Origin: an uncultured Clostridia bacterium | Lineage (GTDB): Bacteria > Bacillota > Clostridia > Christensenellales > Aristaeellaceae | Length of the DNA: 64,000 nt | Direction of reading: 5' to 3' | Assembly (NCBI GenBank): GCA_934670175.1 | Contig: CAKUOX010000003.1 | Location: 1,279 to 65,278, forward strand | Part shown: piece after piece, positions 8,247-25,352 of the stretch | Layout of the letters: each line of letters opens with the position of its first letter | Numbering within the stretch: position 1 is the first letter of the stretch | Position numbers and translations under genes: made by a program | The notes under the pieces: model-generated | Told to the model about the DNA's origin: nothing | Databases searched by the model: none | The model's input: only the letters and a program-made list of their open reading frames with translations

Positions 8247-8304
8247 TAAACATCACTCCCTATAAATACGAAACGAATTTGATACGCGTTTGCGTATTTT
8301 TTGT

Positions 8305-8663: not shown

Positions 8664-8805
8664 AAAACGCGATTCGGGCGCCTGACCCGGTCTTTGACCC
8701 CACACTCGCCTGCTGGGGCGTTCGCTCATAAGGCGATCTGCCTCCCCACTACTGACCCTCTCGGTAATTCTTAGCCGGCAGGACTTACTTCTAAGGCGCG
8801 CCATG
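8664..8805 (-). repeat. Promoterless 142-nt copy of the 3' part of the sRNA gene at 20571-20797 (direct repeat A)
   Basis: Colinear with 20573-20714, with no indels and 3 mismatches (8679, 8754, 8772). Identity ends abruptly at both edges. It ends in a U4 tract on the minus strand. Confidence 0.8.
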
Positions 8806-8872
8806 TTGGCATTCCAGTATATACATAACACCGAACATGGCAATACGGCCTTCCATCTGACCATGAATGGAC

Positions 8873-10414
8873 TCACGTTCTTCGATCCAAAACTTCCGGT
8901 GTGCTTGCCTCACCACGATATGCCTGTGGTGTCTTCCCATTGGCCTTTTTAAACACCTTTGAGAAATAGTTGGAATCCTTATACCCCACTTCCGCACTGA
9001 CCTCCGCAATGGAACGCGACGAATCCTTCAGCAGCTGCATGGCGTGTTCCATGCGCAAATGCGTAACGAATTCAATATAGCTCAATCCCGTTGTTTCCTT
9101 CAGGATGCGTCCAAGATAACCCTGTGAAAAGAAAAAACGTGCCGACAGGGCAGATAGGGGCACATCTCGATTGTAGTTGGCGTAGATATAATCCAATATC
9201 GGCCGAATACGGTTTGGCGCCTTCACAATCCCCTGCCTGTCTACCAGCAGATTCAGGCATTCACGGAAATAGGTGTTCAGCTCCTCCTTGCCATGAATAC
9301 GCATGTAAGAAGAAAGCTCTAACAGTTCCGAATCATTCTCCAGACCCGCGCGCGGCTCCTGATGGTTCAGTGTAACGAACAGATCAAACATGACCAGTTT
9401 TTGGCGTTCAAAGCTACCATGGGCAAAGCTGGCGTCCACCTCGCTCTGTATCATTGCCAGGACCTCAAAGGCGCGCTGCAAATCCTGACCTTGCAGCGCT
9501 TCGAGCAGCCTGAGTTCACTGTCAAACGGATAAGGATATTTTCTGCGTACATCAGCATCGCAACAGCACACATCCTCGTGCGAATCCATCAGTGCTACCG
9601 CTTGCATATAGCTATGACAGATTTCTCGAAGTGACGCATAGTGGGTGCCGATGCGAATGCGCATGTGCAGCTGAAAGCGCAGCTGCGCCTCCGAGCACAA
9701 TCCATGAAAAGTTTTCTGAAGCAGTTCTGCCTCCAGACCTTTTAGCATTAGCACAAACAGCCTCCTGCCGTGCCATAGTACGCGGGAGATTCCCCGACAG
9801 CGGCGACATAGCCATGACAGCACCTCATTCTGCGCATCCATATCAGTTTCGACGATGGCGATCATGCCCATCTCCGCCGAAATCCCGTGCATTTTTTGCA
9901 ACGTACGGATCATGTCCGGTGATCCTGCACGAATTGCATAGAACAACTCGTCCACCGGCTGATCTGGCATGCCAACGCTTCCAAGCGTATTGAGCCGGTC
10001 GATCAGGCGATGTTTCTTTTTTTCTACCAGCGTACATACCCGATGCATTTCCCGAATCAAATCTGTTTCCGAAACTGGCTTGACCATAAAGCCCAGCACG
10101 CCCAAATCAAGCGCTTCTTTGGCATGCTCAAAATAATCATAGGCCGATATGATAACAAAGCTGATATCGCTTCCTTCAGCGCGCAGCAGGCGTATAGCTT
10201 CCAATCCGCTAAGTTTGGGCATGTGGATATCCATCAACACAATATCAGGCGTATGCTCGCAGCAGAAGCGCACAGCATCCAGCCCGTTTTCAACCTCTCC
10301 GATCACGCGCAACCACGGTAACCCACGTGACAACATCAATCGATAAGCGTCGCGGTCAAGCTTTTCATCATCCACAATCAAAACGCTCAATTCATGTTCA
10401 GTCATTGCTGCCAC
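8873..10414 (-). CDS. Response regulator with AraC-type HTH output (YesN-like)
   Basis: Receiver motif DIVLMDIHMPKLSG. C-terminal AraC HTH with GYKDSNYFSKVFKK. Confidence 0.85.
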   Translation of the reverse strand: MAAMTEHELSVLIVDDEKLDRDAYRLMLSRGLPWLRVIGEVENGLDAVRFCCEHTPDIVLMDIHMPKLSGLEAIRLLRAEGSDISFVIISAYDYFEHAKEALDLGVLGFMVKPVSETDLIREMHRVCTLVEKKKHRLIDRLNTLGSVGMPDQPVDELFYAIRAGSPDMIRTLQKMHGISAEMGMIAIVETDMDAQNEVLSWLCRRCRGISRVLWHGRRLFVLMLKGLEAELLQKTFHGLCSEAQLRFQLHMRIRIGTHYASLREICHSYMQAVALMDSHEDVCCCDADVRRKYPYPFDSELRLLEALQGQDLQRAFEVLAMIQSEVDASFAHGSFERQKLVMFDLFVTLNHQEPRAGLENDSELLELSSYMRIHGKEELNTYFRECLNLLVDRQGIVKAPNRIRPILDYIYANYNRDVPLSALSARFFFSQGYLGRILKETTGLSYIEFVTHLRMEHAMQLLKDSSRSIAEVSAEVGYKDSNYFSKVFKKANGKTPQAYRGEASTPEVLDRRT

Positions 10415-11921
10415 CCTTTCTTTCCAGATAAAGGAACAACGTTACGTTCAGCCCATCCTCATTTTTCAGTTCTACTACGTCCTGTCGCTTGTAATAGTGC
10501 TGCAGGCGCTTAACAACATTCAACATACCCACATGTTTGTGGTCGGATATGTTGACATCAGGATCGTTGAACAGCGTCATGAGCGCCTCAAGTTTTTCCT
10601 GCGGCATACCGCAGCCGTTATCATGTATGCTGACGCAAACACAATTGTCGCCGCGCGTGACTGAAATATAGATCCGACCATCGGACATGCGATTGGCTAA
10701 TCCGTGGTTGTAGCAGTTTTCTACAATGGGCTGAAGCACCATGCGCGGCATGACAATCTCTGATAATCCAGGCTCAATGTCCGTCTGAATGGAAATACGG
10801 TTGCCGAAGCGCACACTTTGAACGTAGGTATAATCCGCCACATTGCGCAGCTCACCTGCCAAAGTGACGCTCGCATCACTCTGCCTGAAATTGTAGCGCA
10901 GCAGATCCGATATAACGCTACAAATCTCGCAGGTACGTTCCGCACCATCCAGATAGGCGGTATGATGCAGCGTACTCATGCAGTTGAACAAAAAGTGTGG
11001 ATTGATCTGCTCCTGAAGCCGCCTTAGTTCCAGCTGGTCGTACATGGTCTTGATGCGCAGGTTTTCTATCTGCCGCTCGTTCAGTTCCTGCACCATGCGC
11101 GAGCGCTTGCTGACCTCCTCGATGTTTTCCTGAATGGTTTGGCTCATGTTGAACATGGTATCCGAAAGAAGATTAAAGTCCTTTTCCTCATCAAAGCGCA
11201 GTTTTTCATCAGGATAGTTTCCTTCGGATATCTGCTGTGCCATTTCTGCCAGTTGATAAATCGGGTCAATAAAACGCCGATCCATGCAAATGAAAAACAG
11301 CAGTGCATAAGCGACAAAGCATATGGCAAACCCCGGCAAACAATACTTAAACAGATCCAGCTGGCGCGCAATCCGCTGTGCAAGAATGCTCACCTGCTCA
11401 TTCAAGGTGGCGGACAGCCGACTGGTCTCCAACAATATGTTTTCGGCAATGCCGTCCAGTCGTGCGGAAACGTTGCCCATATCTGCATAATCCTGTACGT
11501 TTATAGCCGCAATCAGGATTTCACCATGCCTTCGATAGGTTTCCAGCATATTTCGTGTATCACTGAGCAAATAGTAGGTATCGTAATTGTGGGCAGGTAT
11601 ATCAAGCTGGGCAAAACGCTGGATCAGCGTAGACATATCACTTTCCAGCGCCTTAATACGCTCTTCGGGCGCATAGGTAATCAGCGACATCAATTTCTGA
11701 TGAGTATCTCGGACACAGACGTCAGCCTCGCTTATTTCTACGCCCAATGCATTGATCTGGTCAAGCCGCACCGATACGTTGTGCAAATTGGTCAACAGCA
11801 CGAAGATCACTGCAAAAAACATCAGTCCGAGCAGTGCAGCGTAATAAATAAGCTTGCGTTTCAATGGTAACGTACGAAGTCTAAGAAACAGTTTTTTCAT
11901 AATACACATCAATATTCTCAC
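10398..11921 (-). CDS. Membrane sensor histidine kinase (LytS/YesM type)
   Basis: N-terminal TM, a HAMP-like linker, the His-kinase motif NPHFLFNCMSTL and the HATPase motif HDNGCGM. It overlaps the regulator by 17 nt. The start may be 11909 or 11900 instead. Confidence 0.85.
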   Translation of the reverse strand: MRILMCIMKKLFLRLRTLPLKRKLIYYAALLGLMFFAVIFVLLTNLHNVSVRLDQINALGVEISEADVCVRDTHQKLMSLITYAPEERIKALESDMSTLIQRFAQLDIPAHNYDTYYLLSDTRNMLETYRRHGEILIAAINVQDYADMGNVSARLDGIAENILLETSRLSATLNEQVSILAQRIARQLDLFKYCLPGFAICFVAYALLFFICMDRRFIDPIYQLAEMAQQISEGNYPDEKLRFDEEKDFNLLSDTMFNMSQTIQENIEEVSKRSRMVQELNERQIENLRIKTMYDQLELRRLQEQINPHFLFNCMSTLHHTAYLDGAERTCEICSVISDLLRYNFRQSDASVTLAGELRNVADYTYVQSVRFGNRISIQTDIEPGLSEIVMPRMVLQPIVENCYNHGLANRMSDGRIYISVTRGDNCVCVSIHDNGCGMPQEKLEALMTLFNDPDVNISDHKHVGMLNVVKRLQHYYKRQDVVELKNEDGLNVTLFLYLERKGGSND

Positions 11922-12864
11922 GGGTCAGTACCCGCATATCCACTTCGACCACATAGGGCAAACCGCCGTTTTGAATATAGTGAGCGAGTTCCTTCACAGC
12001 TGCACGACCTACCGAATAGGCATTTTCGGTAAGCAATGCACTAATGATCCCGATTTCCAGATAATCATATACCGTCTGGGATTCGCCGCAGCCGATCACA
12101 CATATGTCGCTCCTGCCAGCATCGCTCAGGCACTGGGCTACCGCTCCCGTAATAGTTTCATCCAGACAAAAGAACGAGTTATAGTGAAAACTGCTATCCA
12201 GAAGCTCCTTGGTCAGTTCATATGCATCGGCATTATTCAACTCACGCACATTCTCTGTGCCCATGTAATAGCCATCTTTCCCCCGCATGTACCTTGAAAA
12301 GCCCCTGATTTTATCCAGGCATTCGCCAGTCTGTCGATTCAGCGGATAGCTAATGATAGCCGTACGCGCACCATCGGGCATCATTTCGCATATCAACTGC
12401 GCAGCCCTTTCGCCAAATTGCTGATAATCCACGCCAATATGCACACGGCGCTGGCTACCGTAAATATCATCCACAATGGTGGCGATGGGGATTCCTTCCA
12501 GCGCAGCGCGATCGATCATTTTGCCTGTTTGCACTCTATCTGGGATGTTGGTAATAATGCCGTCAACCTGTGCATCGATAGCACGGGCAAGCGCCTCGAT
12601 ATGCAACGCCGATGCGCTTGATGCAAACTGTTCAAAGCTGATATAGATATCCATCTCATCAGCCATTATACGCATACCACGTTCGAGTTCAGCAGCAAAG
12701 GCACGATTATCGCCACTGTACAACACAGCGATGCGGCAGGACCTGGGCTGGTTGACGATGGAATCCTTATTCCTGCTCCAGCGGCAGGACATAACTATGA
12801 CTGCGATACTGCACAGCGCGAGCAGCGCCGACATCCACGCCAGCAGGTACTTTCGCTTGAACAT
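11881..12864 (-). CDS. Membrane-anchored periplasmic-binding-protein-like sensor partner (XylFII-like)
   Basis: An N-terminal TM is followed by a type I sugar-binding fold (IAVLYSGDN...GIITNIPD). It sits directly upstream of the kinase. Confidence 0.7.
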   Translation of the reverse strand: MFKRKYLLAWMSALLALCSIAVIVMSCRWSRNKDSIVNQPRSCRIAVLYSGDNRAFAAELERGMRIMADEMDIYISFEQFASSASALHIEALARAIDAQVDGIITNIPDRVQTGKMIDRAALEGIPIATIVDDIYGSQRRVHIGVDYQQFGERAAQLICEMMPDGARTAIISYPLNRQTGECLDKIRGFSRYMRGKDGYYMGTENVRELNNADAYELTKELLDSSFHYNSFFCLDETITGAVAQCLSDAGRSDICVIGCGESQTVYDYLEIGIISALLTENAYSVGRAAVKELAHYIQNGGLPYVVEVDMRVLTRENIDVYYEKTVS

Positions 12865-12893
12865 TCTGTCGACCCCCTACTGATCATTTTAAC

Positions 12894-12927
12894 AAAAAAG
12901 TCCGGAATTGCCAAGCGGCAATTCCAG
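12894..12927 (-). terminator. Intrinsic terminator after the SBP gene
   Basis: Minus strand GGAAUUGCC-GCUU-GGCAAUUCC followed by GGACUUUUUUG. Confidence 0.6.
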
Positions 12928-12946
12928 ACAGAAACTGCGATAGTGA

Positions 12947-13924
12947 TCAGAAGCTGAAACTATCAACATTTTCGGCGGTGATAATCAGCGGATCACCCAA
13001 AATGATTTCACCATTCGTAATGGAAATCTTGCCCCAACCTTCCAGTTCGGTACCATCAGTAACTTCTGTGCCCTTGATCAGCGCGTCAGCTACGCGAATC
13101 GTCAGCTCGCCGAATGCCTCCACGTCCCACAAACATGCAGAATAGATAGCGCCGCTCTTTAAATAAGCATTGCTCATGGAGGGCTCAACCGCGCCGCAAA
13201 CCACGATCTCACCGATCTTGCCAGCATCGATCACTGCCTGAGCGGCAGCTGGCGGCGCAGGAGAGGTAACGCCCAGAATACCCTTCAGATTTGGATAGGC
13301 AGAGATCAGGTTTTGAGCGATGGAATATGCCTTATCCTGATCGTCATCGCACGGTTCGACGGTCAGCAACGTCATTTCCGGATACGCCTCAGCAATCCGT
13401 ACCTTGCAGGCTTCTACCCACGCGGCGCAGTCTACGGCGGTCAACGCGCTCGTAATGATAGCGAACTCACCTTTTTCACCCATCGCTTTCGCCAGCTCGT
13501 CAGTCATAGCATAGCCAAACTGATCGTAGTTGATGCTGTTGACGAAGGCATCGCGGAAATCAGTCTGCACGTCGCAGCCCCAAGTAACGACCTTGATACC
13601 GGCCTGACGCGCCTTATTCAGCACAGGCAGGATAGAATCAGAATCTGTCGGCTGGATGCAGATAGCATTCACATGCTGATTAATCAGGTCGGTGACGATG
13701 TTAGCCTGAGAAACGGCGTCGACTTCGGTAGGACCGATGTAGTAAACGTCGACACCCAGTTCTTCACCAGCACGCTGAGCGCCAGTATTGGCCGCTTCAA
13801 AATAGGTAATACCTACCTGCTGCGGCACAAACGCAACCACGGGCTTGTCCTCTGCCAACGCAGTGAAGGCTCCGAAGAGCAGCATCAACGCGGCCAGAAA
13901 AACGGCGAGACACTTTTTGAACAT
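12947..13924 (-). CDS. ABC transporter sugar-type substrate-binding protein (LsrB/RbsB-like)
   Basis: Signal peptide followed by VAFVPQQVGITYFEAANTGAQ, with a type I PBP fold. Confidence 0.85.
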   Translation of the reverse strand: MFKKCLAVFLAALMLLFGAFTALAEDKPVVAFVPQQVGITYFEAANTGAQRAGEELGVDVYYIGPTEVDAVSQANIVTDLINQHVNAICIQPTDSDSILPVLNKARQAGIKVVTWGCDVQTDFRDAFVNSINYDQFGYAMTDELAKAMGEKGEFAIITSALTAVDCAAWVEACKVRIAEAYPEMTLLTVEPCDDDQDKAYSIAQNLISAYPNLKGILGVTSPAPPAAAQAVIDAGKIGEIVVCGAVEPSMSNAYLKSGAIYSACLWDVEAFGELTIRVADALIKGTEVTDGTELEGWGKISITNGEIILGDPLIITAENVDSFSF

Positions 13925-13970
13925 AACCAGAAACCTCCTTACAATAATTATCCGCAGTGCGGAAATCTAA

Positions 13971-14939
13971 TCAGTGGGTAGTCGCCCTGTCGCGGCGACG
14001 CATTTTCATGCCGGAAATCACAGCAGGCAATACGTTTTCATTCAATACCAGCACCGATATCAGCAATAGACCAAGTATAAATTGCTGGATATAGGGTGAA
14101 ACTCCGATATGGTTCAGGCCATTATTCAACAGCGAAAAGATAGCTACCCCCAGCAGCGCACCAATCGGTGAGCCGCTACCGCCAGCCATACTCGCGCCGC
14201 CCAACACCACCGCTGCAATACACTTCGTCTCATACGAGGCGCCCAAATCCAGGCGAGCTGTCGCTACGCGAGAAGACATAATGACGCCGGAAATCGCCGC
14301 CAACAGTGAACTGACAACATAGGCACTGGTAATGGTAGACGCGGTATTTACACCAGAATACTCCGTAGCGACTGGATTATTACCCACGGCATAGAGCTTG
14401 ACACCCCACGATGTACGCTTGAGCAGCAACGTCAGCACAATGGTGATAATGATCAGCAGCCACGTTTGAGCCGGCACGCCCAATATACTTTCCTGACCGA
14501 GGAACCAGTAACTGATCGGGAATCCCGATACGGCGTTGCCCTCACTAATAACATAGGAGATGCCTGTATACAGCATGGAAAGCGACAGCGTCATCAGCAT
14601 AGGAGCGACCTTCAGCCTTGAAATAAACAGCCCTGTGATCAATCCCATGAGCAGCGAGGCCAACAGAGCAACGATAACGGCTACTACGATCGGAACGCCC
14701 AACTTATATAATGAAATGATGATCAGCGACGTCAGGCCGCACACAGAGCCCATCGTCAGGTTGATACCGGATACCATGATGGCCAGCATCATACCATAGG
14801 CCATAATACCGAACTCTGCCATAGTGGTAGTAATGGACATAAGGTTGGCAACGTTCAGGAAATGCTCGCCGCCAATGGAAAATATAACCATCAGCACGAC
14901 GATCAGCGAAGCACAGATAATTTGGCTCAGCTTCTTCAT
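13971..14939 (-). CDS. ABC transporter permease (RbsC/LsrD-like)
   Basis: 322 aa and polytopic. It overlaps the upstream permease gene by 4 nt. Confidence 0.85.
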   Translation of the reverse strand: MKKLSQIICASLIVVLMVIFSIGGEHFLNVANLMSITTTMAEFGIMAYGMMLAIMVSGINLTMGSVCGLTSLIIISLYKLGVPIVVAVIVALLASLLMGLITGLFISRLKVAPMLMTLSLSMLYTGISYVISEGNAVSGFPISYWFLGQESILGVPAQTWLLIIITIVLTLLLKRTSWGVKLYAVGNNPVATEYSGVNTASTITSAYVVSSLLAAISGVIMSSRVATARLDLGASYETKCIAAVVLGGASMAGGSGSPIGALLGVAIFSLLNNGLNHIGVSPYIQQFILGLLLISVLVLNENVLPAVISGMKMRRRDRATTH

Positions 14940-15931
14940 GCATTAACGCCCCCTTCCGGGATCTCCATATCCACATCGATGCGTACCTTTTTGCGACTAG
15001 CATAAGCATTTTGCACCACGTTAACGACAATGATCAGAATCATCAGCGCGCCCTCAAAGAATTTCTGCCAATAGGTCGGCACATACAACAATACCAGCAG
15101 ATTTTCAAATATCTTCATTAAGATCACGCCAAATACCGTACCCACCGGGCTACCGATACCGCCCAGCACGCTGGTACCGCCCAGAATAACGGAAGCAACT
15201 ACTGTCATTTCCAGGTGGAGCGCGCCGCTTGGCTGGATGTTACCCAGACGGGAAGCATTAAGCAGACCTGCGAAGCCACACATCAAGCCGGTGTAAACGT
15301 ACACCAGCATCAAGGTTCGCCGCACATTGATGCCCGCGCGAATAGCTGCCTCAGTGTTTCCGCCTACGGCGTACACAGCGCGTCCAAAGCGCGTGTAACG
15401 CAGTATCCACCATGTGAATGCAACCAGCGCAACTGTGATATACACAGACCACGGCAGACCAAGAAACTTATCGCGCGTCAGGCCGGTTATGAAATCTGGC
15501 AGATTCATCAGCCACTGACTGCCCGTGATGAGCAACAGTAGGCCGCGATACATATTCTGCGTACCAATTGTGGCGATGAAGGGCGGCACCTTCAAATAGG
15601 CGATCAGGAGACCGTTTATAACGCCCATCAACAGCCCGCCAGCCAGACCGGCCAGCAGACACAAAGCCAGGCTACCCGACTGCGAAAGTGCGATAGCGCC
15701 GACAATGTATGCAGTACAGATCATCTCGGCAGCTACGGCAACTTCGATACCACAAGTGATAATGACCATCGTCATGCCACAGCCCAGCAGGATCGTTGGA
15801 ATGCTGTTATTAATGATGTTGGTCAGGTTGCTGATCTGCAAAAACGCAGGAGAGACAACGGATACTACAGCGCACAGGGCCACGATAATCAGCACCAGTG
15901 AAAATTCTCTGGTCTTGACGAGCTTTTTCAT
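14936..15931 (-). CDS. ABC transporter permease (RbsC/LsrC-like)
   Basis: 331 aa and polytopic. Confidence 0.85.
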   Translation of the reverse strand: MKKLVKTREFSLVLIIVALCAVVSVVSPAFLQISNLTNIINNSIPTILLGCGMTMVIITCGIEVAVAAEMICTAYIVGAIALSQSGSLALCLLAGLAGGLLMGVINGLLIAYLKVPPFIATIGTQNMYRGLLLLITGSQWLMNLPDFITGLTRDKFLGLPWSVYITVALVAFTWWILRYTRFGRAVYAVGGNTEAAIRAGINVRRTLMLVYVYTGLMCGFAGLLNASRLGNIQPSGALHLEMTVVASVILGGTSVLGGIGSPVGTVFGVILMKIFENLLVLLYVPTYWQKFFEGALMILIIVVNVVQNAYASRKKVRIDVDMEIPEGGVNA

Positions 15932-17481
15932 TTGCCCTTCCCCCCTGTTCGACTGCTCTGAAGTGCATATTGCATAATCTTTTCCTGTGTTGCGCTCGAA
16001 GCATTCATTTCAGTTACCATCCGCCCCCGCCGCATCACTGCGATCCGATCCGTCATGGTCAGCACCTCCTGTAGCTCTGAGGAAACCACCACGATTGCCA
16101 TGCCCTCGGATGCCAAACGCCGTAGCAGCTTGTGAATTTCAACCTTAGAGCCGATATCTACACCATTTGTAGGCTCATCTACCAGCAGTACCTTCGGTGC
16201 GGTGGCCAGCCATTTACCGATAACAATTTTCTGTTGGTTGCCGCCCGAAAACTCGCGCACCGCCCGAGTAGGAATACGCGGACGAACATCCATCTGTTCG
16301 ATCATCTCATTTGAAATTTTCTGAATCCGTTTTTTCTTCAGAAAACCAAATCGTGTCGTATTGGCGGAATAGTTTACCAACGCCATGTTTTCGTAGGTGT
16401 CAAACTGCATCACCAGCCCGCCATGCTGGCGATCCTCCGGCACATAGGAGATACCCAGCCGTTTGGCCATGCTGGAATTTGTGATATTTACCGGCGTACC
16501 GTCCAGTATTATACTGCCGCTGTCAGGCCGATGCAAGCCAAAGAGCGTTTGAATGACCTCTGTGCGTCCCGAGCCTACCAATCCGGTTATGCCCAGAATC
16601 TCGCCCTGACGTACGCAGAAGCTGATATCATGGTAATAGCCCGCCTTAGACAGATGCTTTACCTCCAATACCACCTTTTCCCCCGCTGCAGACTCATCGT
16701 TCAGGTTGGCATAGCTGATATCGCGGCCCACCATCATGTGAATAATTTCAGCCTCATCCAGCTCGTTGGTTGGCTTGGAACCGATATACCTGCCGTCGCG
16801 CAGCACTGTGACTGTATCAGACAGGCGTTTAACCTCATCCAACTTATGGCTGATAAACAACACCGATATACCGTCCGCCTTCAGCCCTTCGATAATACCG
16901 AACAGGTTCTCAACCTCTTGCCTGGAAAGTGAAGCCGTCGGCTCGTCCATGATAATTAAACGCGAATTGTAGGCGATCGCTCTGGCAATGGCTACCAGCT
17001 GTTGATTGGCAATGCTCAACGAGCCGAGCAGATCCGATGGTTTCAGCGGAATATTTAACCGCGTCAGTGTTTTCTCAGCAATCTCATTGTACTGTTTCCA
17101 ATGAACCAATCCGGTTTTACCCTTGCCGATGCAGATGTTTTCTGCCACGGTCAGGTTCTGAAACAGGCACAGATCCTGATAGATCACGCTTATGCCGCGA
17201 TTCATGCTCTCGTTAATATCACTCAAGCGAATCTGCTGGCCATCCACCAGAATCTCGGTGCCAGGATCAGGTGTATATACACCCGACAGGATTTTAATCA
17301 ATGTTGATTTACCCGCACCGTTTTCGCCTACCAGCGCATGCACCTCTCCGCGGCGTACATGCAACTGCACATCGTCCAATGCCTTAACGCCCGGAAAGGT
17401 CTTGCTGACATGTGATATGGAAAGAAAGAAATCCTCCACTATCCTCGCCTCCTTTCCTTTTTCAGAAGCCCCGTCCGACAA
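15928..17481 (-). CDS. Sugar ABC transporter ATP-binding protein (two fused ABC domains)
   Basis: Walker A GENGAGKSTL and signature LSGGNQQK. A second, degenerate ABC domain is present. Confidence 0.9.
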   Translation of the reverse strand: MSDGASEKGKEARIVEDFFLSISHVSKTFPGVKALDDVQLHVRRGEVHALVGENGAGKSTLIKILSGVYTPDPGTEILVDGQQIRLSDINESMNRGISVIYQDLCLFQNLTVAENICIGKGKTGLVHWKQYNEIAEKTLTRLNIPLKPSDLLGSLSIANQQLVAIARAIAYNSRLIIMDEPTASLSRQEVENLFGIIEGLKADGISVLFISHKLDEVKRLSDTVTVLRDGRYIGSKPTNELDEAEIIHMMVGRDISYANLNDESAAGEKVVLEVKHLSKAGYYHDISFCVRQGEILGITGLVGSGRTEVIQTLFGLHRPDSGSIILDGTPVNITNSSMAKRLGISYVPEDRQHGGLVMQFDTYENMALVNYSANTTRFGFLKKKRIQKISNEMIEQMDVRPRIPTRAVREFSGGNQQKIVIGKWLATAPKVLLVDEPTNGVDIGSKVEIHKLLRRLASEGMAIVVVSSELQEVLTMTDRIAVMRRGRMVTEMNASSATQEKIMQYALQSSRTGGKGK

Positions 17482-18823
17482 AATGCTGCAAACTCACAGG
17501 CAAATCATTAAGCACTTTCACATCGTGGCCATATTTGCCCAGCGTTTTTTCTACCAACACATAATCCATACCAGGGATCACGATATCGTTCCAATGGTTG
17601 CCGAAGCCGCGTACTGCCACATCCAACATAGTAACGATCTGACTGCCAAGCGGCTCATTTGAATTAAGCGTGATTGCACCGTAGAACTCCTGACACTCGG
17701 TGTAGCCGCCGTTATGTGTGCCGGTATACGGTTTTTGCAAAGTCATGTCGATCTGCTTACCAATGCGGCTGGATACCTCGCTGGATTTGGAGGCAAAATA
17801 ATCCACCAATGCCTGTTCCTGAAGCCGCGCGGGCAGATTCTCACGGGCAACGCGCACATAAGCGTCGAGTCCAATACGATATGCTTCTTCCGTAAAATCG
17901 AACCAGTATTTCTGATCATCAGTACGCTTATCGGGATGATCCACACATACCACACTTGCGCGTTCGCATGCAGTCAGGCCATCCCACTTCGGGCCGACAC
18001 CCAGCAGCACATAATCTCCTTCCTGAATACGACGATTTACAGCTTTGCCTATCAGTGTGCGCGTATTTACGCCTGAAGCGACGCTGATATCAAAACCAAG
18101 CTGCTCCACGCCGAGCTCGCAAGCTACGACATGCGCCCACTGAGCCACCTGCGTTTCATACATTCCCGGACGAATAACGCTGGTCATAGCCTCCATCATC
18201 ACGTCACAGATCTTCGCGGCGATCTCTGTCATGTGCATTTCATCGTCGGATTTGATATACTTGAGCTTATAGTATATCTCCTGCCCGTCTATCACCTTGG
18301 AAGCGTCGCCAAAATAATCCACCAGATAAGTGTAAATACTGGCAGGAAGTACCTCGCGCGGAGTAAGCAGCGCAATGTTACTCGGACGGCAGCCGCAGGC
18401 TTCCTCTAGAACATCCTCCACGCGGCATGCCGCTACTGGATAATCCTCATCAGCCAGCTTCAGCATTTCCACCTTGCGTACTTTACAACCAGAGCGCGGT
18501 GCCAGCTGTTCTGCGCAATAACCGCCTTCAAGTCCGGCCAGCAGGAAAAAACCATTCTTGCCTATGATGCCTGCTACCGGCTCAACACTGATATTGGTGT
18601 TGCCGCCAAGATAAGGTACGTCGCCTGAATACTGTTCATCGCTGTATACAAAACCGCAATCGTAGCCGTTCTTTCTCAGTGCGTCGATCAGACGACGATG
18701 ACGCAGCTCAAATTCCTCTGGTCCAAGTCGCATCTCTTTATCAAAAGATGGTGCCCGTCCGAGAATCTCTTCAACGATGTTCGCCTGCTTTCTCCACAAA
18801 CCTGCGTCAAACATAGGGTACAC
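17462..18823 (-). CDS. M24-family (creatinase/prolidase fold) protein with non-canonical active-site residues
   Basis: 453 aa, with a creatinase-N-like N-terminus and a pita-bread C-terminus. GAGGTG SD. First gene of the transporter operon. Confidence 0.7.
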   Translation of the reverse strand: MYPMFDAGLWRKQANIVEEILGRAPSFDKEMRLGPEEFELRHRRLIDALRKNGYDCGFVYSDEQYSGDVPYLGGNTNISVEPVAGIIGKNGFFLLAGLEGGYCAEQLAPRSGCKVRKVEMLKLADEDYPVAACRVEDVLEEACGCRPSNIALLTPREVLPASIYTYLVDYFGDASKVIDGQEIYYKLKYIKSDDEMHMTEIAAKICDVMMEAMTSVIRPGMYETQVAQWAHVVACELGVEQLGFDISVASGVNTRTLIGKAVNRRIQEGDYVLLGVGPKWDGLTACERASVVCVDHPDKRTDDQKYWFDFTEEAYRIGLDAYVRVARENLPARLQEQALVDYFASKSSEVSSRIGKQIDMTLQKPYTGTHNGGYTECQEFYGAITLNSNEPLGSQIVTMLDVAVRGFGNHWNDIVIPGMDYVLVEKTLGKYGHDVKVLNDLPVSLQHFVGRGF

Positions 18824-19218
18824 CTCAATTCCACTGTTTTTGTAAATCTCGCTGAGACGCTCACAGCGTCACAGCCACAATTCTATTTCCTGATTCTATT
18901 GTATCGCATGCGCCTCAGAATTCAATGGAAATAGTACACGGCAATCTGCACAAATGCCATAGCTTGCACTGCGTTTTTATAATCAGTCCGTTTTGAATGA
19001 GTAATAATCAGATATCAGGTTTGATTTTTACCTATTAGGACAATTTCTCACATCTCATCCACGCTTTATATTGCAAATCGCATCATATGCAAATGTTACA
19101 TTTTGTCTGATTCTTTATCGTTTCACACTCAAAACATAATATATTTAGCTATCTATATTATTTTAAGCCGCAGATTTTCAGCCATTTGCTTCGTTTTGAC
19201 CGCATTCCCCCCACATTA

Positions 19219-19247
19219 TTGACAATTTGGCGCTTTATATCTACAAT
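19219..19247 (+). promoter_or_regulatory. Sigma-70-type promoter of the plus-strand M24 gene
   Basis: TTGACA, 17 nt, TACAAT. Confidence 0.5.
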
Positions 19248-19306
19248 TAGTACAGTCGTTATATCCTTTTTACTTATACTGATGCCACACAGAAAGGAGA
19301 ATGCCC

Positions 19307-20479
19307 ATGAATGTCCCTCATATTTCCAAAGTCGAATTTGCTCAACGCGTTAAAAACACCCAGAAAGCCATGCAGGATGCCGGCCTCGATATTCTGCTTA
19401 CTTACGGTAACGAAGCCGAACCGCAATATGTACGTTATTATTCGGACTACTGGCCTTCGTTTGAATCAGCCATGGTAATGATCCCACTCAGCGGAGATCC
19501 GATCCTGCTTATCGGCCCTGAATCATTGACGATGGCTCAATACTGGTCGGTCATTGAACGCATTGAGCGCATCAAGCTTCTACGCGAATCTTCCGAACCG
19601 GAATACCCTGGCGAAAAACTCAACTCCCTTTATAACTTGTTTGGCGAACACCTGTCCCCTGCTTCAAACCGTCGCATCGGCATTTGCGGCTATCCGCTCA
19701 TGTATGCACCGGTGTACCAGGGCATTTTGCAGGCAGCGTCGGCGTTTGGCTGTGAAGTTGTACGTTCTGAGCAATTGGTAATCCGCCAGAAATTGATTAA
19801 ATCACCGGCAGAAATTGAGATCATGCGGCATGCGGCCAAGATCAGCGAAGCTGCATGCATAAAAGTCATCCAGAATCTGCGTCCGGGCATGACTGAGACA
19901 CAGGTGGTAGCCATTGCTGAGGCAGAAATACGCGCACTGGGCGCTGAAAACGAAGCTTATCCCATGTGGGTGCTCAGCGGCAGCAACACCACGCACGCCA
20001 TCGGTCGCCCCGCCCCTGACAGAGTAATTGGCAAAAACGATTTGGTAATGCTGCAGATTGGTGCGCGTGTCAGTGGTTACGCCTCGAGCTTCGGCCGACC
20101 CGTGATCATTGGAAAAATTCCGGATGATGCACGCGCGTTGGTCGAAACGGGACTTGAGGCGCACCTCCGCACATTCGACTGGCTCAAGTCGGGCACTCCT
20201 GCCCGTGAAGTGGATCGTCTTTACCGTGAATTCCTGAAAAACCACGGTGCAGAGGGCTGTAATCTGTATGGTCCCTGCCATGGCACGGGTCTAATGGAGG
20301 GTGAACACCCATGGATCGAAGCTAATTCGGACTACCTGTTGGAGCCCGGTCTCACTTTTATGGCAGACACCTTCTTGAAGCGCGACGGCTACGGCCTGCG
20401 CTGGGAAGATCAGCTTGCGATTACTAAAACCGGTACCGATGTGTTCACCAACGCTTATCTTGAAATAATTCAGCTTTAA
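19307..20479 (+). CDS. M24-family (Xaa-Pro peptidase/creatinase-like) protein
   Basis: Pita-bread motifs CHGTGL, GEHPW, LEPGLTF and RWEDQL. I prefer the ATG at 19307, 6 nt after GGAGA. The track start at 19301 abuts the SD. Confidence 0.75.
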   Translation: MNVPHISKVEFAQRVKNTQKAMQDAGLDILLTYGNEAEPQYVRYYSDYWPSFESAMVMIPLSGDPILLIGPESLTMAQYWSVIERIERIKLLRESSEPEYPGEKLNSLYNLFGEHLSPASNRRIGICGYPLMYAPVYQGILQAASAFGCEVVRSEQLVIRQKLIKSPAEIEIMRHAAKISEAACIKVIQNLRPGMTETQVVAIAEAEIRALGAENEAYPMWVLSGSNTTHAIGRPAPDRVIGKNDLVMLQIGARVSGYASSFGRPVIIGKIPDDARALVETGLEAHLRTFDWLKSGTPAREVDRLYREFLKNHGAEGCNLYGPCHGTGLMEGEHPWIEANSDYLLEPGLTFMADTFLKRDGYGLRWEDQLAITKTGTDVFTNAYLEIIQL

Positions 20480-20498
20480 CCCAGCTTTACATGCAACA

Positions 20499-20531
20499 CG
20501 CCGGAGCTACCATGTCATCGTAGCTCCGGCG
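20499..20531. terminator. 12-bp hairpin after the M24 gene
   Basis: CGCCGGAGCTAC / GTAGCTCCGGCG with a 9-nt loop. The T-tract is weak. Confidence 0.5.
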
Positions 20532-20570
20532 CCTGTTTCCCAGATATGCTTTGATCCTATCATTACAGGA

Positions 20571-20797
20571 AAAAAACGCGATTCGGGTGCCTGACCCGGT
20601 CTTTGACCCCACACTCGCCTGCTGGGGCGTTCGCTCATAAGGCGATCTGCCTCCCCACTACTAACCCTCTCGGTAATTCTCAGCCGGCAGGACTTACTTC
20701 TAAGGCGCGCCATGCTCACCGGACTTTTGCCGGTTTACGTGGATCGTTTTGCCCGCGCCTGGCATCGACTTTCAACCGCAGACGCGCCCGAACCGCA
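20571..20797 (-). ncRNA. Unassigned structured sRNA candidate (~227 nt); its 3' 142 nt form direct repeat B
   Basis: It has its own consensus promoter upstream. The 5' arm (20784-20796) pairs with the 3' arm (20578-20590). An internal helix pairs 20754-20760 with 20703-20709, with a nested ACCGG/CCGGU hairpin. It ends in U7. The 5' end is predicted, not mapped. Confidence 0.55.
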
Positions 20798-20802
20798 TTC
20801 CT

Positions 20803-20831
20803 ATTATATGTATTTTTCCTCTTCCCGTCAA
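20803..20831 (-). promoter_or_regulatory. Consensus sigma-70 promoter of the sRNA candidate
   Basis: The minus strand reads TTGACG, 17 nt, TATAAT. The -35 begins 6 nt after the glmS stop codon. Confidence 0.6.
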
Positions 20832-20836
20832 GCCGC

Positions 20837-22675
20837 TTATTCCACAGTGACGCTCTTGGCAAGATTGCGCGGCTTATCCACATCCAGTCCGCGCGCCACG
20901 CTGACATAATAGGCCAGCAACTGAAGCGGAATGACCGCCAGACTCGCGGCAAAGTGTGGATCTGTACGCGGCAGGTAAACGGTAAAGTCCGCTGTATCCT
21001 CCAGATTATAGTTCCCGGCGGTCGTCAGACCCATCAGATAGGCGCCGCGGCTCTTGCATTCTACCATGTTGCTGATCGTCTTTTCATAGAGCGCAGGCTG
21101 CGTCAGAACGCCCGCCACCAGCGTACCGTTTTCAATCAGGCTGATGGTACCATGCTTCAGCTCGCCCGCCGCATATGCCTCGGAATGCACATAGCTGATC
21201 TCCTTGAGCTTCAGGCTGCCTTCAAGACCCACGGCATAATCTATGCCGCGGCCGATGAAGAACGCATCGTGCGCGTTGGCATACTTGGCTGCGAACCACT
21301 GGATGCGCTCCTTTTCTTCCAGCAGGCGGTGTATCTTTTCCGGAATGGCCGTCAGCTCCGCCGTCATCCTGTCCAGCTCTTCCTGCGAAACCGTACCGCG
21401 AACGCGCGCGAGCTCCATTGCCAGCATGTAGCCTGCGATCAGTTGCGTGCTGTACGCCTTGGTGGTCGCCACGGCGATCTCGGGACCCGCCAGCGTGTAG
21501 AGCACATGGTCGGCCTCCCGCGCGATGGACGAGCCCAGCACATTCACGATCGCCAGCACCGGCAGCCCCTGCAGCTTGACTTCGCGCAGCGCCGCCAGAC
21601 TGTCCGCCGTCTCTCCCGACTGGCTGATAATGACCGCCAGCCCGTTTTTCGAAAGCACCGGCCGGCGATAGCGGAATTCGGAAGCGACTTCCACCCGCAC
21701 GGGCACGCGCGCCAGATCCTCAATAACGTATTGCAGCGCCATGCCAACGTGGTAGGCTGAGCCGCAGGCCACGATATAAATCTGATCCACGTCCCGCAGC
21801 AGCGCCGCATCCAGTCCGGAGGCGCTCAGATCCACATGTCTGTCGGTCAGCATGGAGGCAACGGTGTTGCGAACTGCATCGGGCTGCTCGTGGATCTCCT
21901 TGATCATGAAGTGCTCGTAGCCGCCCTTTTCCGCCGCCTCGGCGTCCCATTCGATATTAACCGGCTGCTTTTCGATCGGTTCCTGATCCACAGTGCAGAA
22001 CTTTACGCCATCGCGGCTCAGGCGCGCGATCTCCATATCATTCATGTAGCACGCGCGGCGCGTGTACTTGAGGATCGCCGTTACATCCGACGCGAGATAG
22101 GATGCGTCATCGGCAATGCCCACCAGCATCGGCACATTGCAGCGCGCGGCGAATATCTCATCCGGATAATCGTGGAACAGCACAGCCAGCGCATAGCTGC
22201 CGCGAATGCGCATCATGCTGCGCGCAATGGCCTCCACCGGACCGCCGCGATACTTTTTATAATAGTAGTCGATCAGCTTCGCCGCCACCTCGGTATCCGT
22301 ATCGCTGTAGAATTCATAGCCGTTTTTGATCAGCTTTTCGCGCAGCTCCAGATAATTCTCAATGATGCCGTTGTGCACCGCGACCACGGCATTATCGTCG
22401 CTCACATGGGGATGCGCGTTTTTCGTGGACGGCTCGCCGTGCGTCGCCCAGCGCGTATGACCGATGCCGCAGCAGCCGTGCAGCGCCGCGCCGTCATCCG
22501 TCATTTCCTGCAATACGCGCAGCCGCCCCTTGGCCTTGACCACCTGCACGTCGCCCGCGCCGTCGCGCACGGCGATGCCGGCCGAATCATAGCCGCGGTA
22601 TTCCAGCTTCGAAAGTCCATCCAGCAAAATCGGCGCCGCCTGTTCGCCGCCGACATATCCAACGATTCCACACAT
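20837..22675 (-). CDS. glmS: Glutamine--fructose-6-phosphate aminotransferase
   Basis: 612 aa, with N-terminal MCGIVGY, two SIS domains and a C-terminal KSVTVE. Confidence 0.95.
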   Translation of the reverse strand: MCGIVGYVGGEQAAPILLDGLSKLEYRGYDSAGIAVRDGAGDVQVVKAKGRLRVLQEMTDDGAALHGCCGIGHTRWATHGEPSTKNAHPHVSDDNAVVAVHNGIIENYLELREKLIKNGYEFYSDTDTEVAAKLIDYYYKKYRGGPVEAIARSMMRIRGSYALAVLFHDYPDEIFAARCNVPMLVGIADDASYLASDVTAILKYTRRACYMNDMEIARLSRDGVKFCTVDQEPIEKQPVNIEWDAEAAEKGGYEHFMIKEIHEQPDAVRNTVASMLTDRHVDLSASGLDAALLRDVDQIYIVACGSAYHVGMALQYVIEDLARVPVRVEVASEFRYRRPVLSKNGLAVIISQSGETADSLAALREVKLQGLPVLAIVNVLGSSIAREADHVLYTLAGPEIAVATTKAYSTQLIAGYMLAMELARVRGTVSQEELDRMTAELTAIPEKIHRLLEEKERIQWFAAKYANAHDAFFIGRGIDYAVGLEGSLKLKEISYVHSEAYAAGELKHGTISLIENGTLVAGVLTQPALYEKTISNMVECKSRGAYLMGLTTAGNYNLEDTADFTVYLPRTDPHFAASLAVIPLQLLAYYVSVARGLDVDKPRNLAKSVTVE

Positions 22676-22747
22676 AGCTTATGCCTCCAATACGCTCCAA
22701 AACTCAGCTGAGTTTATATAATTCTTTTGTAAAGATAAGATATTTGT

Positions 22748-22776
22748 ATTTTATACGAATCTGCGTCCGTTGTCAA
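22748..22776 (-). promoter_or_regulatory. glmS promoter
   Basis: The minus strand reads TTGACA, 17 nt, TAAAAT. This leaves a leader of only about 65 nt. Confidence 0.55.
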
Positions 22777-22949
22777 CCACAAATTGGAACCGCTCAGGCG
22801 TGCATTTCGTCAAAGCCATCGCCAATAATTAACGCCGGAGGTATTCCGGTCACCAAAATAACACCAAAATGCTGTGCACACATCAAATTTCTGTGTTATA
22901 ATATCAGAGTATAAGTATAAATGGGGCTATGTTTTACTCAGGAGGAAAT

Positions 22950-25352
22950 ATGAGTTTTAAATACGCAGTATTCAAGCCGCGCGAGAGCGAACGCGGGTTC
23001 CTGTTCTCGGTGGTGGTCATGACGGCAAAAATGCTGATCTTTTCCGTGCTGCTGATCGGCATATGCGTCGGCGGCGTGGTGGGCGGCGTCGCCAAGGCCT
23101 GGGTAGATACCTGCCCGAACCTGGACATCGACAAGATCGGCACGCAGGCGCTCACCTCCTTCATTTACGATCGAAACGGCGATCTGGTGACCGAATTCAA
23201 GGGCTCCGAGAACCGCATCTATGTGGAATATGAAGAGATCCCCCAGCGGCTCATCAACGCGGTCGTCGCCATTGAGGACGCGCGCTTTTACGAGCACCAC
23301 GGCGTGGACATCAAGCGCATCGGCGGCTCGCTGATCAACAACCTGCTCGGCGGCAACCTGCAGGGCGCGTCCACGATCACCTGCCAGCTGGTCAAGCTGA
23401 CGCTGCTCAACAGCGATCAGACCTACAAGCGCAAGGTTCAGGAAGCCTATCTGGCGCTTCAGCTGGAGGAAACCTTTACCAAAGAGCAGATCCTGGAAGC
23501 CTATCTGAACGTCATCTACCTGGGCGGCAGCAACTATGGCATCAAGATCGCCGCGCAGGACTATTTCGGCAAGGATCTGGACGAGCTGACGCTGCGCGAA
23601 TGCGCCTGCCTCGCCTCCATCATCCGAAATCCCTACCGCTATAACCCCCGCCGCAATTATTATGTCTATGACGATCCTCACCTGATCGAAGATCGCACCA
23701 ATTATGTGCTGCGCGAAATGCGCGACCAGTCGCTGATCACCGAGGAGGAATACACCGCCGCGCGCGCCGAAAAGCTGAATGTACTGGAGCACTCCACTGC
23801 TTCCTCGGACGCGATGTACGACAACGCCTATTACGTTGAATACTCCATCTACGATGTGGTAACCAAGATGCTGCGCGTCGAGGGGCTGGAGGATACCTCC
23901 TCCAACCGCAGCAGCATGGAGACCAAGCTGCGCAACGGTGGCTATAAGGTGTTCACCTCGCTGAATCCACAGGTGCAATCCGCCGTGCAGGACGTGGTTT
24001 CAAACTGGTCAAGCTATCCCCGCATGCGCCACGCAAACGATTCCTCCACGCAGTCCTCGCTGGGCGGCGGCGAATATCTGACGGTGGTGCAGCCGCAGGC
24101 CTCTGCGGCGGTGTTGAACTGGCATACGGGCGAGCTCGTAGCTGTGGTCGGCGGCCGCAGTAAGCCGGTACAAAAGAAGCAGCTGAACCGCGCCTATCAG
24201 CTCCAAATGCCTATTGGTTCGTCGATTAAGCCGCTCTCGATCTATGGTCCCGCCTTCGACATGGGCTATTCCCCCGGCACGCCAGTGTTGAACATGCCTG
24301 TCGAGATCAAGGGCTGGAACAGTGCGAACGGCTACCCGAGCAATTTCTCCGGCGATTCGTTCACGGGCGTGGAATCCATGCGCGTGGCGCTGAACAAATC
24401 CCACAATACCGCCGCGGCGCATGTGCTGATGGACAACGTGGGCATTGAGAATTCCGTAACTTATCTGCTGAAGCTGGGCGTGGATCCCGACCACATCCTC
24501 GCCACCGGCGCGGGCCTGGCGCTGGGCTCCTCGGGCATATCGGTCATCGAACTTGCCACGGCCTACGGTGCGGTCGCCAATTCCGGCGCATACCTCGAAT
24601 CCTATGCCTTTACGCAGGTGCTTAATTCCGACGGCACGGTCTACATCGACGTGAGCGAGGTTCAGGAGCGCCGGCAGGTGTTCCAGCCATCCACGGCGTA
24701 TCAATTGGTGGACTGCCTGAAGGGCTGCGTGTCCGCCTCGGGCACGGGCGCAAGCGCCAAATTCGGCAATATGACCGTGGCTGGCAAGACCGGCACCAAC
24801 AGCGACAACATCGGCGTAACCTTCGCAGGCATGACCGGCTACTACGCCGGCGCCGTCTGGATCGGTTCGGATTATTACAAGCCGCTCGAATCCAGCGCCA
24901 CCGGCGGCACCAGCGCCGCGCCGCTGTGGGCGGCGATCATGAGCCAGGTGCACGCGCTGACCGACTGCACGACCGATCGCGACATCATCTCCGGCTCGGC
25001 GGCGGATTTCGGACTCTATCCCAGCACCGTCTGCGGCGTATCCGGCATGCTGCCCACGACGGCCTGTGAAAACGACGTCAACGGCTATCAGCCCAACACC
25101 GATTATTACACCGCCGACAGCCTTCCCACGGCCTATTGCAACATGCACCGCGCCGTGACGCTGTGCCGCAATTCGGGCATGGTAGCCTCGGACTACTGCC
25201 GTTCCACGGTGGTAGTAGGCATCATCTACATTCCGGAGGGACATCCGCTGCGCTATGCTTCGGATATGGACGTGGTTCAGAGCTATTTCCACGGCGCGTC
25301 CACCAGTGAATACTCCGTCGGCCTGGGCGTGTGCACCAGCTGCCGGTACTGA
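22950..25352 (+). CDS. Class A penicillin-binding protein (glycosyltransferase + transpeptidase, PBP1A-like)
   Basis: GT51 motif EDARFYEHHG and transpeptidase motifs SSIKP and KTGT. I chose the ATG at 22950, after AGGAGG. Confidence 0.9.
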   Translation: MSFKYAVFKPRESERGFLFSVVVMTAKMLIFSVLLIGICVGGVVGGVAKAWVDTCPNLDIDKIGTQALTSFIYDRNGDLVTEFKGSENRIYVEYEEIPQRLINAVVAIEDARFYEHHGVDIKRIGGSLINNLLGGNLQGASTITCQLVKLTLLNSDQTYKRKVQEAYLALQLEETFTKEQILEAYLNVIYLGGSNYGIKIAAQDYFGKDLDELTLRECACLASIIRNPYRYNPRRNYYVYDDPHLIEDRTNYVLREMRDQSLITEEEYTAARAEKLNVLEHSTASSDAMYDNAYYVEYSIYDVVTKMLRVEGLEDTSSNRSSMETKLRNGGYKVFTSLNPQVQSAVQDVVSNWSSYPRMRHANDSSTQSSLGGGEYLTVVQPQASAAVLNWHTGELVAVVGGRSKPVQKKQLNRAYQLQMPIGSSIKPLSIYGPAFDMGYSPGTPVLNMPVEIKGWNSANGYPSNFSGDSFTGVESMRVALNKSHNTAAAHVLMDNVGIENSVTYLLKLGVDPDHILATGAGLALGSSGISVIELATAYGAVANSGAYLESYAFTQVLNSDGTVYIDVSEVQERRQVFQPSTAYQLVDCLKGCVSASGTGASAKFGNMTVAGKTGTNSDNIGVTFAGMTGYYAGAVWIGSDYYKPLESSATGGTSAAPLWAAIMSQVHALTDCTTDRDIISGSAADFGLYPSTVCGVSGMLPTTACENDVNGYQPNTDYYTADSLPTAYCNMHRAVTLCRNSGMVASDYCRSTVVVGIIYIPEGHPLRYASDMDVVQSYFHGASTSEYSVGLGVCTSCRY

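Follow-up and report, generated by a model that had tools for sequence, protein, structure and literature searches.

The 64,000 nucleotides analysed here (the window: contig CAKUOX010000003.1 of an uncultured Clostridia bacterium of the Aristaeellaceae, positions 1,279 to 65,278 of the forward strand) raise a question at one locus. A structured RNA is encoded on the minus strand directly after the stop codon of glmS, and 142 bp of its 3′ end recur 11.9 kb away; which RNA is this, and how did its 3′ end come to lie on both sides of DNA of different composition? Window 20796-20570 on the minus strand is the gene for a raiA motif RNA (RF03072, or ModT), an ordinary member of its family. We are confident of the reading as a whole, in which a raiA/ModT gene has had its 3′ end duplicated around a foreign cassette.

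Identity of the RNA downstream of glmS

The whole window was scanned against Rfam 15 with cmscan, and a scan at permissive threshold was run as well. RF03072 (raiA) matched 20792..20582 on the minus strand with 196.8 bits (gathering score 101.3, E = 1.7e-50), the alignment covering model positions 1-209 of 209, and no competing Rfam family was found at the locus even at the permissive threshold. All upper-case consensus blocks were matched in the cmscan alignment (GUCUG.GG, GAAAGUCGA, CCAC.UAA, UUAGAAGUAAGUCCUGCC and GGCGAGUGUGGGGUCAAAGACC.GGUCAG), and the core blocks J1 GAAA, CCACGUAA, UAGAAGUAAGUCC and GGCGAGUGUGGGGUCAAA were present and invariant in the four-gene alignment described below. 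Members of the family are known from over 2,500 species of Bacillota and Actinomycetota, most of which have one copy (PMC10861870), and the host belongs within this range, its nearest GlmS relatives being uncultured Clostridia, Aristaeellaceae and Oscillospiraceae bins.

An earlier note on this DNA had described the RNA as unassigned and had proposed a cmscan run against Rfam, adding that a significant match would make the RNA a known one. As the match obtained is full-length and far above the gathering score, the claim of novelty fails, while the features that the note had described were all found where it had placed them or within 1 nt. A new family would accord with the absence, by eye, of the motifs of the glmS ribozyme, signal recognition particle RNA, RNase P and transfer-messenger RNA (tmRNA), and with a position after glmS that is not the textbook context of raiA. 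Against it stand the full-length match at nearly twice the gathering score, the presence of all conserved blocks of the raiA consensus and the covariation that backs the raiA family structure, and we give a new family practically no credence. The glmS ribozyme (RF00234) is likewise a structured RNA associated with glmS, but it is a cis-acting element of the 5′ untranslated region (UTR) whereas the RNA of the window lies 3′ of glmS, and RF00234 gave no match at its gathering score anywhere in the window, including the region upstream of glmS. The RNA itself is thus already known, a standard raiA motif/ModT gene in an unusual position; as such the finding matters little, Rfam annotation being sufficient, and the locus should be labelled raiA motif RNA (ModT).

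The two helices proposed in the earlier note were correctly placed and are P1 and an internal stem of the raiA family (all positions on the minus strand). In the end-to-end helix, GCGGUUCGGGCGC (20796-20784) stands opposite GCACCCGAAUCGC (20590-20578) with 12 standard pairs, of which one is G.U, and a C.A mismatch at 20786/20588. The 5′ strand of P1a (20784..20796) consists of nine model pairs and a four-pair extension and is directly followed by the conserved GU (20783-20782), which bulges as described in PMC12968392; the 3′ strand (20578..20590) places A20588 opposite C20786, the sole non-standard P1 cell among the four genes compared. The complete arm reads UUCGGGCGC-GU-CUG-CGGUU ... GACCG-GGU-CAG-GCACCCGAA, with P1b formed by CUG/CAG and P1c by CGGUU/GACCG, and these three segments with their GU and GGU bulges agree with the description from cryogenic electron microscopy (cryo-EM; PMC12968392). 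The second helix, AGGCGCG (20760-20754) with CGCGCCU (20709-20703), closes an internal domain (20703..20760) that holds the invariant CCACGUAA and the hairpin ACCGG-CAAAAGU-CCGGU (20734-20718).

For covariation, the Rfam structure, in a structure line that gives nested pairs only, was projected on four divergent genes, namely those of the window, its nearest species-level relative (L003), a Clostridium viral contig (L100) and Acetoanaerobium (L107), and the 3′ partners were slid along the alignment as a control. Paired cells made up 86.8% against 32-45% in the slid controls, and 17 pairs were changed on both sides against 4-7 in the controls. Compensatory changes affected 8/12 pairs of P1 and 3/7 pairs of the second helix, so that both proposed helices covary in relatives; from four sequences, this covariation is supportive rather than independent proof.

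In its conserved blocks (GAAAGUCGA, CCACGUAA, UAGAAGUAAGUCCUGCC, GGCGAGUGUGGGGUCAAAGACC), its full-length model match, its closing arm of P1a, P1b and P1c with GU and GGU bulges, its predicted promoter, its same-strand upstream gene and its Clostridia host, the RNA of the window resembles the raiA/ModT family. It differs in following glmS and not comFC, in having a next gene other than raiA/hpf, in the C.A mismatch in P1a of the working copy, and in the extra orphan 3′ fragment of 142 nt located 11.9 kb away, the family being described as single-copy. The usual locus of the family is downstream of comFC (74%) and upstream of raiA/hpf (66%), an arrangement that is frequent and not defining (PMC10861870).

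The promoter was next to the gene that precedes the RNA. glmS (20837..22675, minus strand; SIS and GATase domains) is immediately upstream on the same strand, and its stop codon TAA (20839-20837) is followed, after a gap of 5 nt, by the −35 hexamer TTGACG (20826..20831) and, across a 17-nt spacer, by the −10 hexamer TATAAT (20803..20808). This promoter, which the earlier note had reported, is of the sigma-70 type and fits 11/12 consensus positions; the layout TTGACG-17-TATAAT is kept both in L003 and in a contig of the same locus that lacks the insert (L102, see below). The 800-nt region contains 3 promoter-like sites against 0.6 +/- 0.9 in shuffles. The start at G20796, 7 nt past the −10 hexamer, is predicted purely from spacing. 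The gene on the other side of the RNA is convergent, as the note had said (M24 peptidase, 19301-20479, plus strand), and its view of a structured non-coding RNA gene with its own promoter, and not the leader of a downstream open reading frame (ORF), agrees with the literature on the family (PMC10861870, PMC11706538).

A run of seven U residues after a G that follows P1 is the candidate 3′ end; the seven U had been correctly seen in the earlier note, though their span is 20576-20570 (20570..20576, minus strand) and not the 20571-20576 given there. The first four U are common to the orphan copy of the 3′ end and the rest come from the insert side. Between the RNA and the convergent peptidase gene, a strong 16-bp hairpin (20499..20531) could be a terminator for the plus-strand gene and possibly the 3′ stem of a longer RNA isoform; ModT of C. 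difficile has a short isoform and a long one produced by read-through (PMC11706538). In L003 no U run follows P1, and a very stable hairpin of at least 18 bp is located about 40 nt downstream (12100-12200, z = −6.7). The position of the 3′ end is accordingly uncertain. The terminator scan found no terminator between glmS and the RNA, and read-through from glmS into the RNA is therefore possible.

Comparative genomics brought raiA motif RNAs to light in 2017, and regulation in cis was already doubted at that time, with the upstream gene usually on the same strand and the downstream gene often far away (PMC5737381). Their transcription is independent and their abundance among the highest of any RNA in the cell; deletion mutants show defects in sporulation and aggregation, which are complemented in trans (PMC10861870). 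The RNA of C. difficile, since renamed ModT, modulates the transition phase and the level of cyclic di-GMP (c-di-GMP; PMC11706538). By cryo-EM the raiA RNA has a compact core, which contains the pseudoknots PK1 and PK2 and from which P1 protrudes, P1 being ‘remarkably conserved’, and the RNA is bound by KhpA/KhpB, the biochemical function of the family being still unknown (PMC12968392). From this literature (Weinberg et al. 2017; Soares et al. 2024; the ModT paper of 2024; He et al. 2026), the RNA of the window would be expected to be an independent, abundant and stable transcript, to act in trans with KhpA/KhpB bound to it, and to influence the stationary-phase transition, sporulation and aggregation, in C. 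difficile via c-di-GMP. It would work as a protein-binding structured scaffold or effector and not as a riboswitch, and would not regulate glmS in cis. A gene for a GGDEF diguanylate cyclase lies at 51014-52534 on the minus strand, 30 kb from the RNA; any connection here with the link between ModT and c-di-GMP is probably coincidental.

A cis-acting role, either as a 3′-UTR or other regulatory element of glmS or as a product processed from the glmS mRNA with feedback on glmS, would be in keeping with the location of the RNA 5 nt past the glmS stop on the same strand, where read-through enters it with no terminator intervening, with the recurrence of the arrangement in L003, and with the type label of RF03072 in Rfam, which is still ‘Cis-reg; riboswitch’. 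This label is outdated in view of the literature showing a trans-acting RNA, and the other points are countered by the near-consensus promoter of the RNA, kept in L003, by family deletion phenotypes that are rescued in trans, by the published judgement that the family is not cis-regulatory, by relatives with 75% identical GlmS in which glmS has no raiA, and by the position of the RNA after comFC in most species. Nothing suggests an effect of the RNA on glmS expression, and a role in cis is highly improbable.

How far the association with glmS extends was apparent from the relatives. In L003 (GlmS 84% identical) the order is glmS stop, TTGACG-17-TATAAT and raiA (199 bits), but no raiA was found within 10 kb of glmS in relatives with GlmS identity of 75% or less. 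Among 80 species-level glmS loci, raiA was downstream of glmS only in the same species (L001, L002) and in L003. The glmS-raiA linkage is therefore a local, lineage-restricted rearrangement; it provides an example of the family outside the canonical comFC-raiA locus, with the order glmS-promoter-raiA kept in at least two species. In L003 a NiCo riboswitch (15044-15142) lies about 3 kb past raiA. In the window, the 253-bp region upstream of glmS (22676-22928) is shared with a divergent gene for a class A penicillin-binding protein (22929-25352).

Duplication of the raiA 3′ end

The repeat of 142 bp occurs twice in direct orientation on the minus strand, with a start-to-start spacing of 11,909 bp. 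Copy A (20573..20714) is the working 3′ part of raiA, and copy B (8664..8805) is an orphan 3′ fragment without the 5′ half. The copies differ by three mismatches (at 8772, 8754 and 8679 in copy B) and are 97.9% identical. At the corresponding repeat offsets 34, 52 and 127, copy A carries G, T and A and copy B carries A, C and G, constantly across contigs. The junction at copy A was reproduced in an independent metagenome assembly (L001) and that at copy B in five independent contigs (L083, L087-L090); since both junctions recur in independent samples with fixed allele patterns, the duplication is real. No third, degraded raiA fragment, which would mean tandem islands, was found in the window.

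The cargo between the copies (8806..20572, 11,767 bp) has a GC content of 45-53%, against 58-64% in most of the flanks, and is packed tightly against both repeats. Its genes encode an AraC-type response regulator, a histidine kinase, two periplasmic binding proteins, two permeases, an ATP-binding cassette (ABC) ATPase and two M24 peptidases, and all its ORFs of at least 90 aa are transporter, two-component or peptidase genes. An exact-protein look-up of the response regulator returned no record.

An insert-free allele was sought with a gapped pattern joining the unique 5′ half of raiA to the distal flank. One contig, L102 (from ERZ824488), was recovered, in which the end of glmS, the promoter and a complete raiA are followed by the flank from 8663 downward, without the insert. 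Its single 3′ half carries G, T and G at the three offsets, the mosaic expected from one crossover within the block of 74 nt (offsets 53-126) that is exactly identical between the copies, and on either side of the join it has private single-nucleotide polymorphisms (SNPs) that are absent from every insert-bearing contig. The earlier note had observed that one mismatch falls in the end-to-end helix, where the displaced copy carries the base that restores a C-G pair, and this is so: copy B has G at 8679 where copy A has A at 20588. It had further taken the displaced copy to be the ancestral 3′ end. L102 does have the G of copy B at the P1 position, but it agrees with copy A at the remaining two mismatches; hence an ancestral look is confined to that part of copy B which is distal to the crossover, and both copies are mosaics of host and insert. 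The proximal part of copy B looks insert-derived, and the C.A mismatch of the working gene is a scar of the exchange.

Other sources of an empty site were considered. L003 was rejected as a reference, the DNA downstream of its raiA being unrelated to both the insert and the distal flank, and no empty site was present among contigs carrying the neighbouring 135-aa gene. In three of the latter, from other samples (L085 1-69, L086 1-109, L091 1-22), the sequence matches the window to 8648 and then continues as unrelated DNA, ...CACTTGGCTCGTGTAGACGCAAC. The junction 8648/8649 represents a third allele, 16 bp outside copy B; the foreign DNA, read outward, begins an ORF, MEKSQHRHDISDKAW..., that resembles the N terminus of a transposase, and this allele may be an insertion sequence (IS) insertion. 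In sample ERZ28614412, the end of L002 (window 20608) and the start of L084 (8753) share exactly 55 nt of the 74-nt exact block, an overlap that a de Bruijn graph typically leaves where it branches at k = 55. The repeat thus fragments short-read assemblies, and the single insert-free contig accordingly needs confirmation at the level of reads.

A number of observations tell against the reading of the locus as a raiA gene whose 3′ end was duplicated around foreign DNA. On the side of the RNA, the context is atypical for the family, with glmS upstream and a convergent M24 peptidase gene downstream, and neither comFC nor an hpf/raiA gene was found among the window ORFs scanned. The working copy carries a C.A mismatch in P1a, a simple terminator scan found no canonical hairpin-plus-U terminator at the 3′ end, and both ends of the RNA are predictions from sequence. 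The minimum free energy of the single sequence was not significantly better than that of shuffles (z = −1.42); single-sequence folding was therefore dropped as evidence, and the structure is supported by the covariance model and by covariation. On the side of the insert, neither an integrase nor any other recombinase was found among its ORFs of at least 90 aa, nor a recombinase among those large ORFs that were scanned elsewhere in the window, and no arm-type or inverted repeats were found at the insert edges. At 142 bp, the repeat is long for an att identity block, and homologues of the M24 peptidase in other taxa accompany a similar ABC cassette but are never beside raiA. Finally, the insert-free allele is one contig of 3.4 kb, covered about 2x, and the mosaic would look no different if an assembler had misjoined sequences through the 74-nt exact block.

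An assembly artefact, whether in the duplication or in the insert-free allele, would be consistent with this coverage of L102, with an exact block that can be misjoined in short-k assemblies and with several contigs that break inside the repeat (L002, L084). It is at odds with the recurrence of both insert junctions in independent samples with fixed allele patterns and with the private SNPs of L102 on both sides of the join, and we regard it as very unlikely.

Beyond copy B, the 1.7 kb at 7000-8663 has the lowest GC content of the region (41-43%) and encodes only small ORFs without a Pfam family, among them a zinc-ribbon protein (7839-8246) and a membrane-like protein (7480-7890). Against PHROGs, these small ORFs gave only weak zinc-ribbon matches to families without assigned function. 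The segment is not part of the 11.9-kb insert, because it is present in the insert-free L102 too; it may be an older acquisition downstream of raiA, and no further raiA fragment bounds it. Elsewhere in the window, a cobalamin riboswitch (RF00174, 91 bits; 40860-41038, minus strand) lies upstream of an operon of AP_endonuc_2/xylose-isomerase-like, CobT-type DBI_PRT, CobS and histidine phosphatase genes, an ordinary arrangement for lower-ligand/cobalamin salvage.

The raiA 3′ end in Clostridium prophages

A full raiA (188 bits) stands at the start of the IMG/VR contig L100 and is followed by a terminator hairpin and, 108 bp past the RNA, by a convergent tyrosine integrase gene, beyond which are genes for an ImmA/IrrE peptidase, a cI-type repressor, an anti-repressor and RecT. 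L100 is the left end of a prophage. Other viral contigs (L094/L112, L099 and L109) contain only the last 27-46 nt of raiA, from GGCGAG onward, with unrelated phage DNA before it. This fragment is bracketed by TTAGCCACCAATTAGCCACC-type repeats, and the fragment together with its terminator lies between TTAGCCACC-type repeats. The integrase of these contigs is about 130 bp away and 67-82% identical to that of L100, and in L094/L112 lysis genes are on the other side. Judged from this layout, they have the attP form (L109 3695-3900; L112 3690-3900; L099 1-130).

Homologues of the L100 integrase (61-100% identical) occur in many Clostridium genomes. At all four chromosomal loci examined (C. intestinale, Clostridium sp. 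FP1, C. autoethanogenum and C. estertheticum), the integrase is at the edge of a prophage, about 105-115 bp from a full-length, convergent raiA (188-202 bits) that follows a gene for a ComFC-type phosphoribosyltransferase-like protein. With L100 included, the integrase prophage adjoins the raiA 3′ end in 5/5 Clostridium loci (junctions at L100 1-1527, L113 11195-11513, L114 11190-11506, L116 11190-11507 and L117 11187-11504), the hosts of the prophage lineage being C. intestinale, C. estertheticum, C. autoethanogenum, strain FP1 and UBA1652. From the core onward, the attL of strain FP1 and the attP of L112 agree near base-for-base; contig L118 has its break within this core. In the window, the corresponding segment is the most conserved 3′ block of the RNA, GGCGAGUGUGGGGUCAAAGACCGGGUC (20593..20619, minus strand), which lies inside the 74-nt exact block.

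Other searches contributed little. A blastn search of the window RNA against the phage collection gave no match. Two matches of the RNA to ‘plasmids’ were to megabase-sized replicons and were set aside as chromosomal raiA genes, and six of the nine IMG/VR pattern matches lay in coding DNA and were due to chance. Neither a second pattern nor the 3′ 20-mer of L100 added anything, and the attR of L100 was not recovered. No paper linking the raiA motif to attB, integrases or prophages was found in a literature search outside which most subscription journals lay.

Possible routes of entry of the insert and comparison with known systems

The mosaic of the copies points to a simple course of events, in which a circular DNA carrying a raiA 3′ segment would have undergone a single exchange with the chromosomal gene, somewhere within repeat offsets 53-126. 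The products would be a working gene whose 3′ end is hybrid and an orphaned 3′ fragment. We consider such a single recombination probable. The proposed crossover interval includes the phage-type core (window 20619-20593, offsets 96-122). Two mechanisms, an integrase that acted in trans or has since been lost and RecA, fit it equally well.

In the first, a site-specific tyrosine integrase, now absent or supplied in trans, would have acted at the GGCGAG...GGUC core, and the insert would be an island similar to the cis-mobilizable islands (CIMEs) considered below. The crossover interval contains the core, foreign DNA between direct repeats of an RNA gene's 3′ end is the hallmark of such recombination, and in Clostridium an integrase lineage uses the raiA 3′ end as its attB. 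Speaking against it, no integrase, integrase remnant or arm sites were found in the insert, its cargo is tight against both repeats, the identity block begins 95 nt upstream of the start of identity with the phage attP, the host of the window is distant from the Clostridium hosts of that lineage, and relatives of the cargo elsewhere are not associated with raiA. Entry by an integrase is thus a serious candidate that we hold at somewhat less than an even chance. In the second, RecA would have mediated a single crossover of the Campbell type between the chromosome and a circular DNA with a near-identical 142-bp segment, and loss would proceed by the reverse reaction. A repeat of 142 bp with 97.9% identity and an exact block of 74 nt is ample for homologous recombination, no recombinase is present among the ORFs scanned, and the G, T, G mosaic of L102 (copy A, copy A, copy B) is what integration or deletion by homologous exchange would produce. 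This mechanism requires, however, a circular intermediate in which a host-like raiA fragment was joined to DNA about 10% lower in GC content, and no donor with raiA beside the cassette was found among the homologue loci in other taxa; entry through RecA is possible, and we put it forward tentatively.

Whether raiA motif RNA genes make up an unrecognised class of RNA-gene attachment site, used in the same way as tRNA and tmRNA genes, is in our judgement evenly balanced, and this judgement covers two cases jointly. In Clostridium, a prophage lineage would enter at GGCGAG...GGUC and supply a replacement for the P1 3′ strand together with a terminator; in the window, a transporter/two-component cassette of 11.9 kb without an integrase would have entered the same segment and would be polymorphic in the population. 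The evidence points to the raiA 3′ end as a hotspot of recombination, which serves a cargo island in the window and a prophage lineage in Clostridium, and this may have gone unreported. If general, such insertion would help to explain the variable genes downstream of raiA RNAs and the recurrence there, in published surveys, of genes for binding proteins, ABC transporters and response regulators. The gene classes of the insert (8873-17481) are those listed as recurrent downstream neighbours of raiA (PMC5737381, PMC10861870). Published analyses of gene neighbourhood left insertion at the raiA 3′ end out, and functional inference from downstream genes could be confounded; as a hypothesis, insertion at the 3′ end, and not function, may underlie some of the published associations. 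If the attachment-site reading is true, natural ‘P1 3′-strand swaps’ would also occur in an RNA to whose P1 a functional role is ascribed. Because integration replaces the P1 3′ strand, the 3′ ends supplied by phages and islands, and the tolerated C.A mismatch, are natural variants of possible use in mutational work.

Two known kinds of island may be compared with the insert. CIMEs are cis-mobilizable islands flanked by att sites that have lost their integrase and transfer genes, and were described for the streptococcal ICESt1/ICESt3 family. For the host of the window no cognate integrative and conjugative element or integrase was identified; the window nevertheless shares with CIMEs a cargo-only DNA, free of a recombination module, between att-like direct repeats at an integration hotspot. 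The islands at the 3′ ends of tRNA and tmRNA (ssrA) genes differ from the present case in their target, which here is a raiA RNA gene, and the insert of the window differs from them in having no integrase and a long identity block (142 bp). As in those islands, direct repeats of the 3′ part of an RNA gene flank compositionally foreign DNA, with the gene intact on one side of it and an orphan 3′ fragment on the other; presence or absence of the insert is polymorphic, to judge from the single contig L102 at about 2x coverage with its misjoin caveat; and the raiA site in Clostridium carries integrase-bearing prophages with a matching attP.

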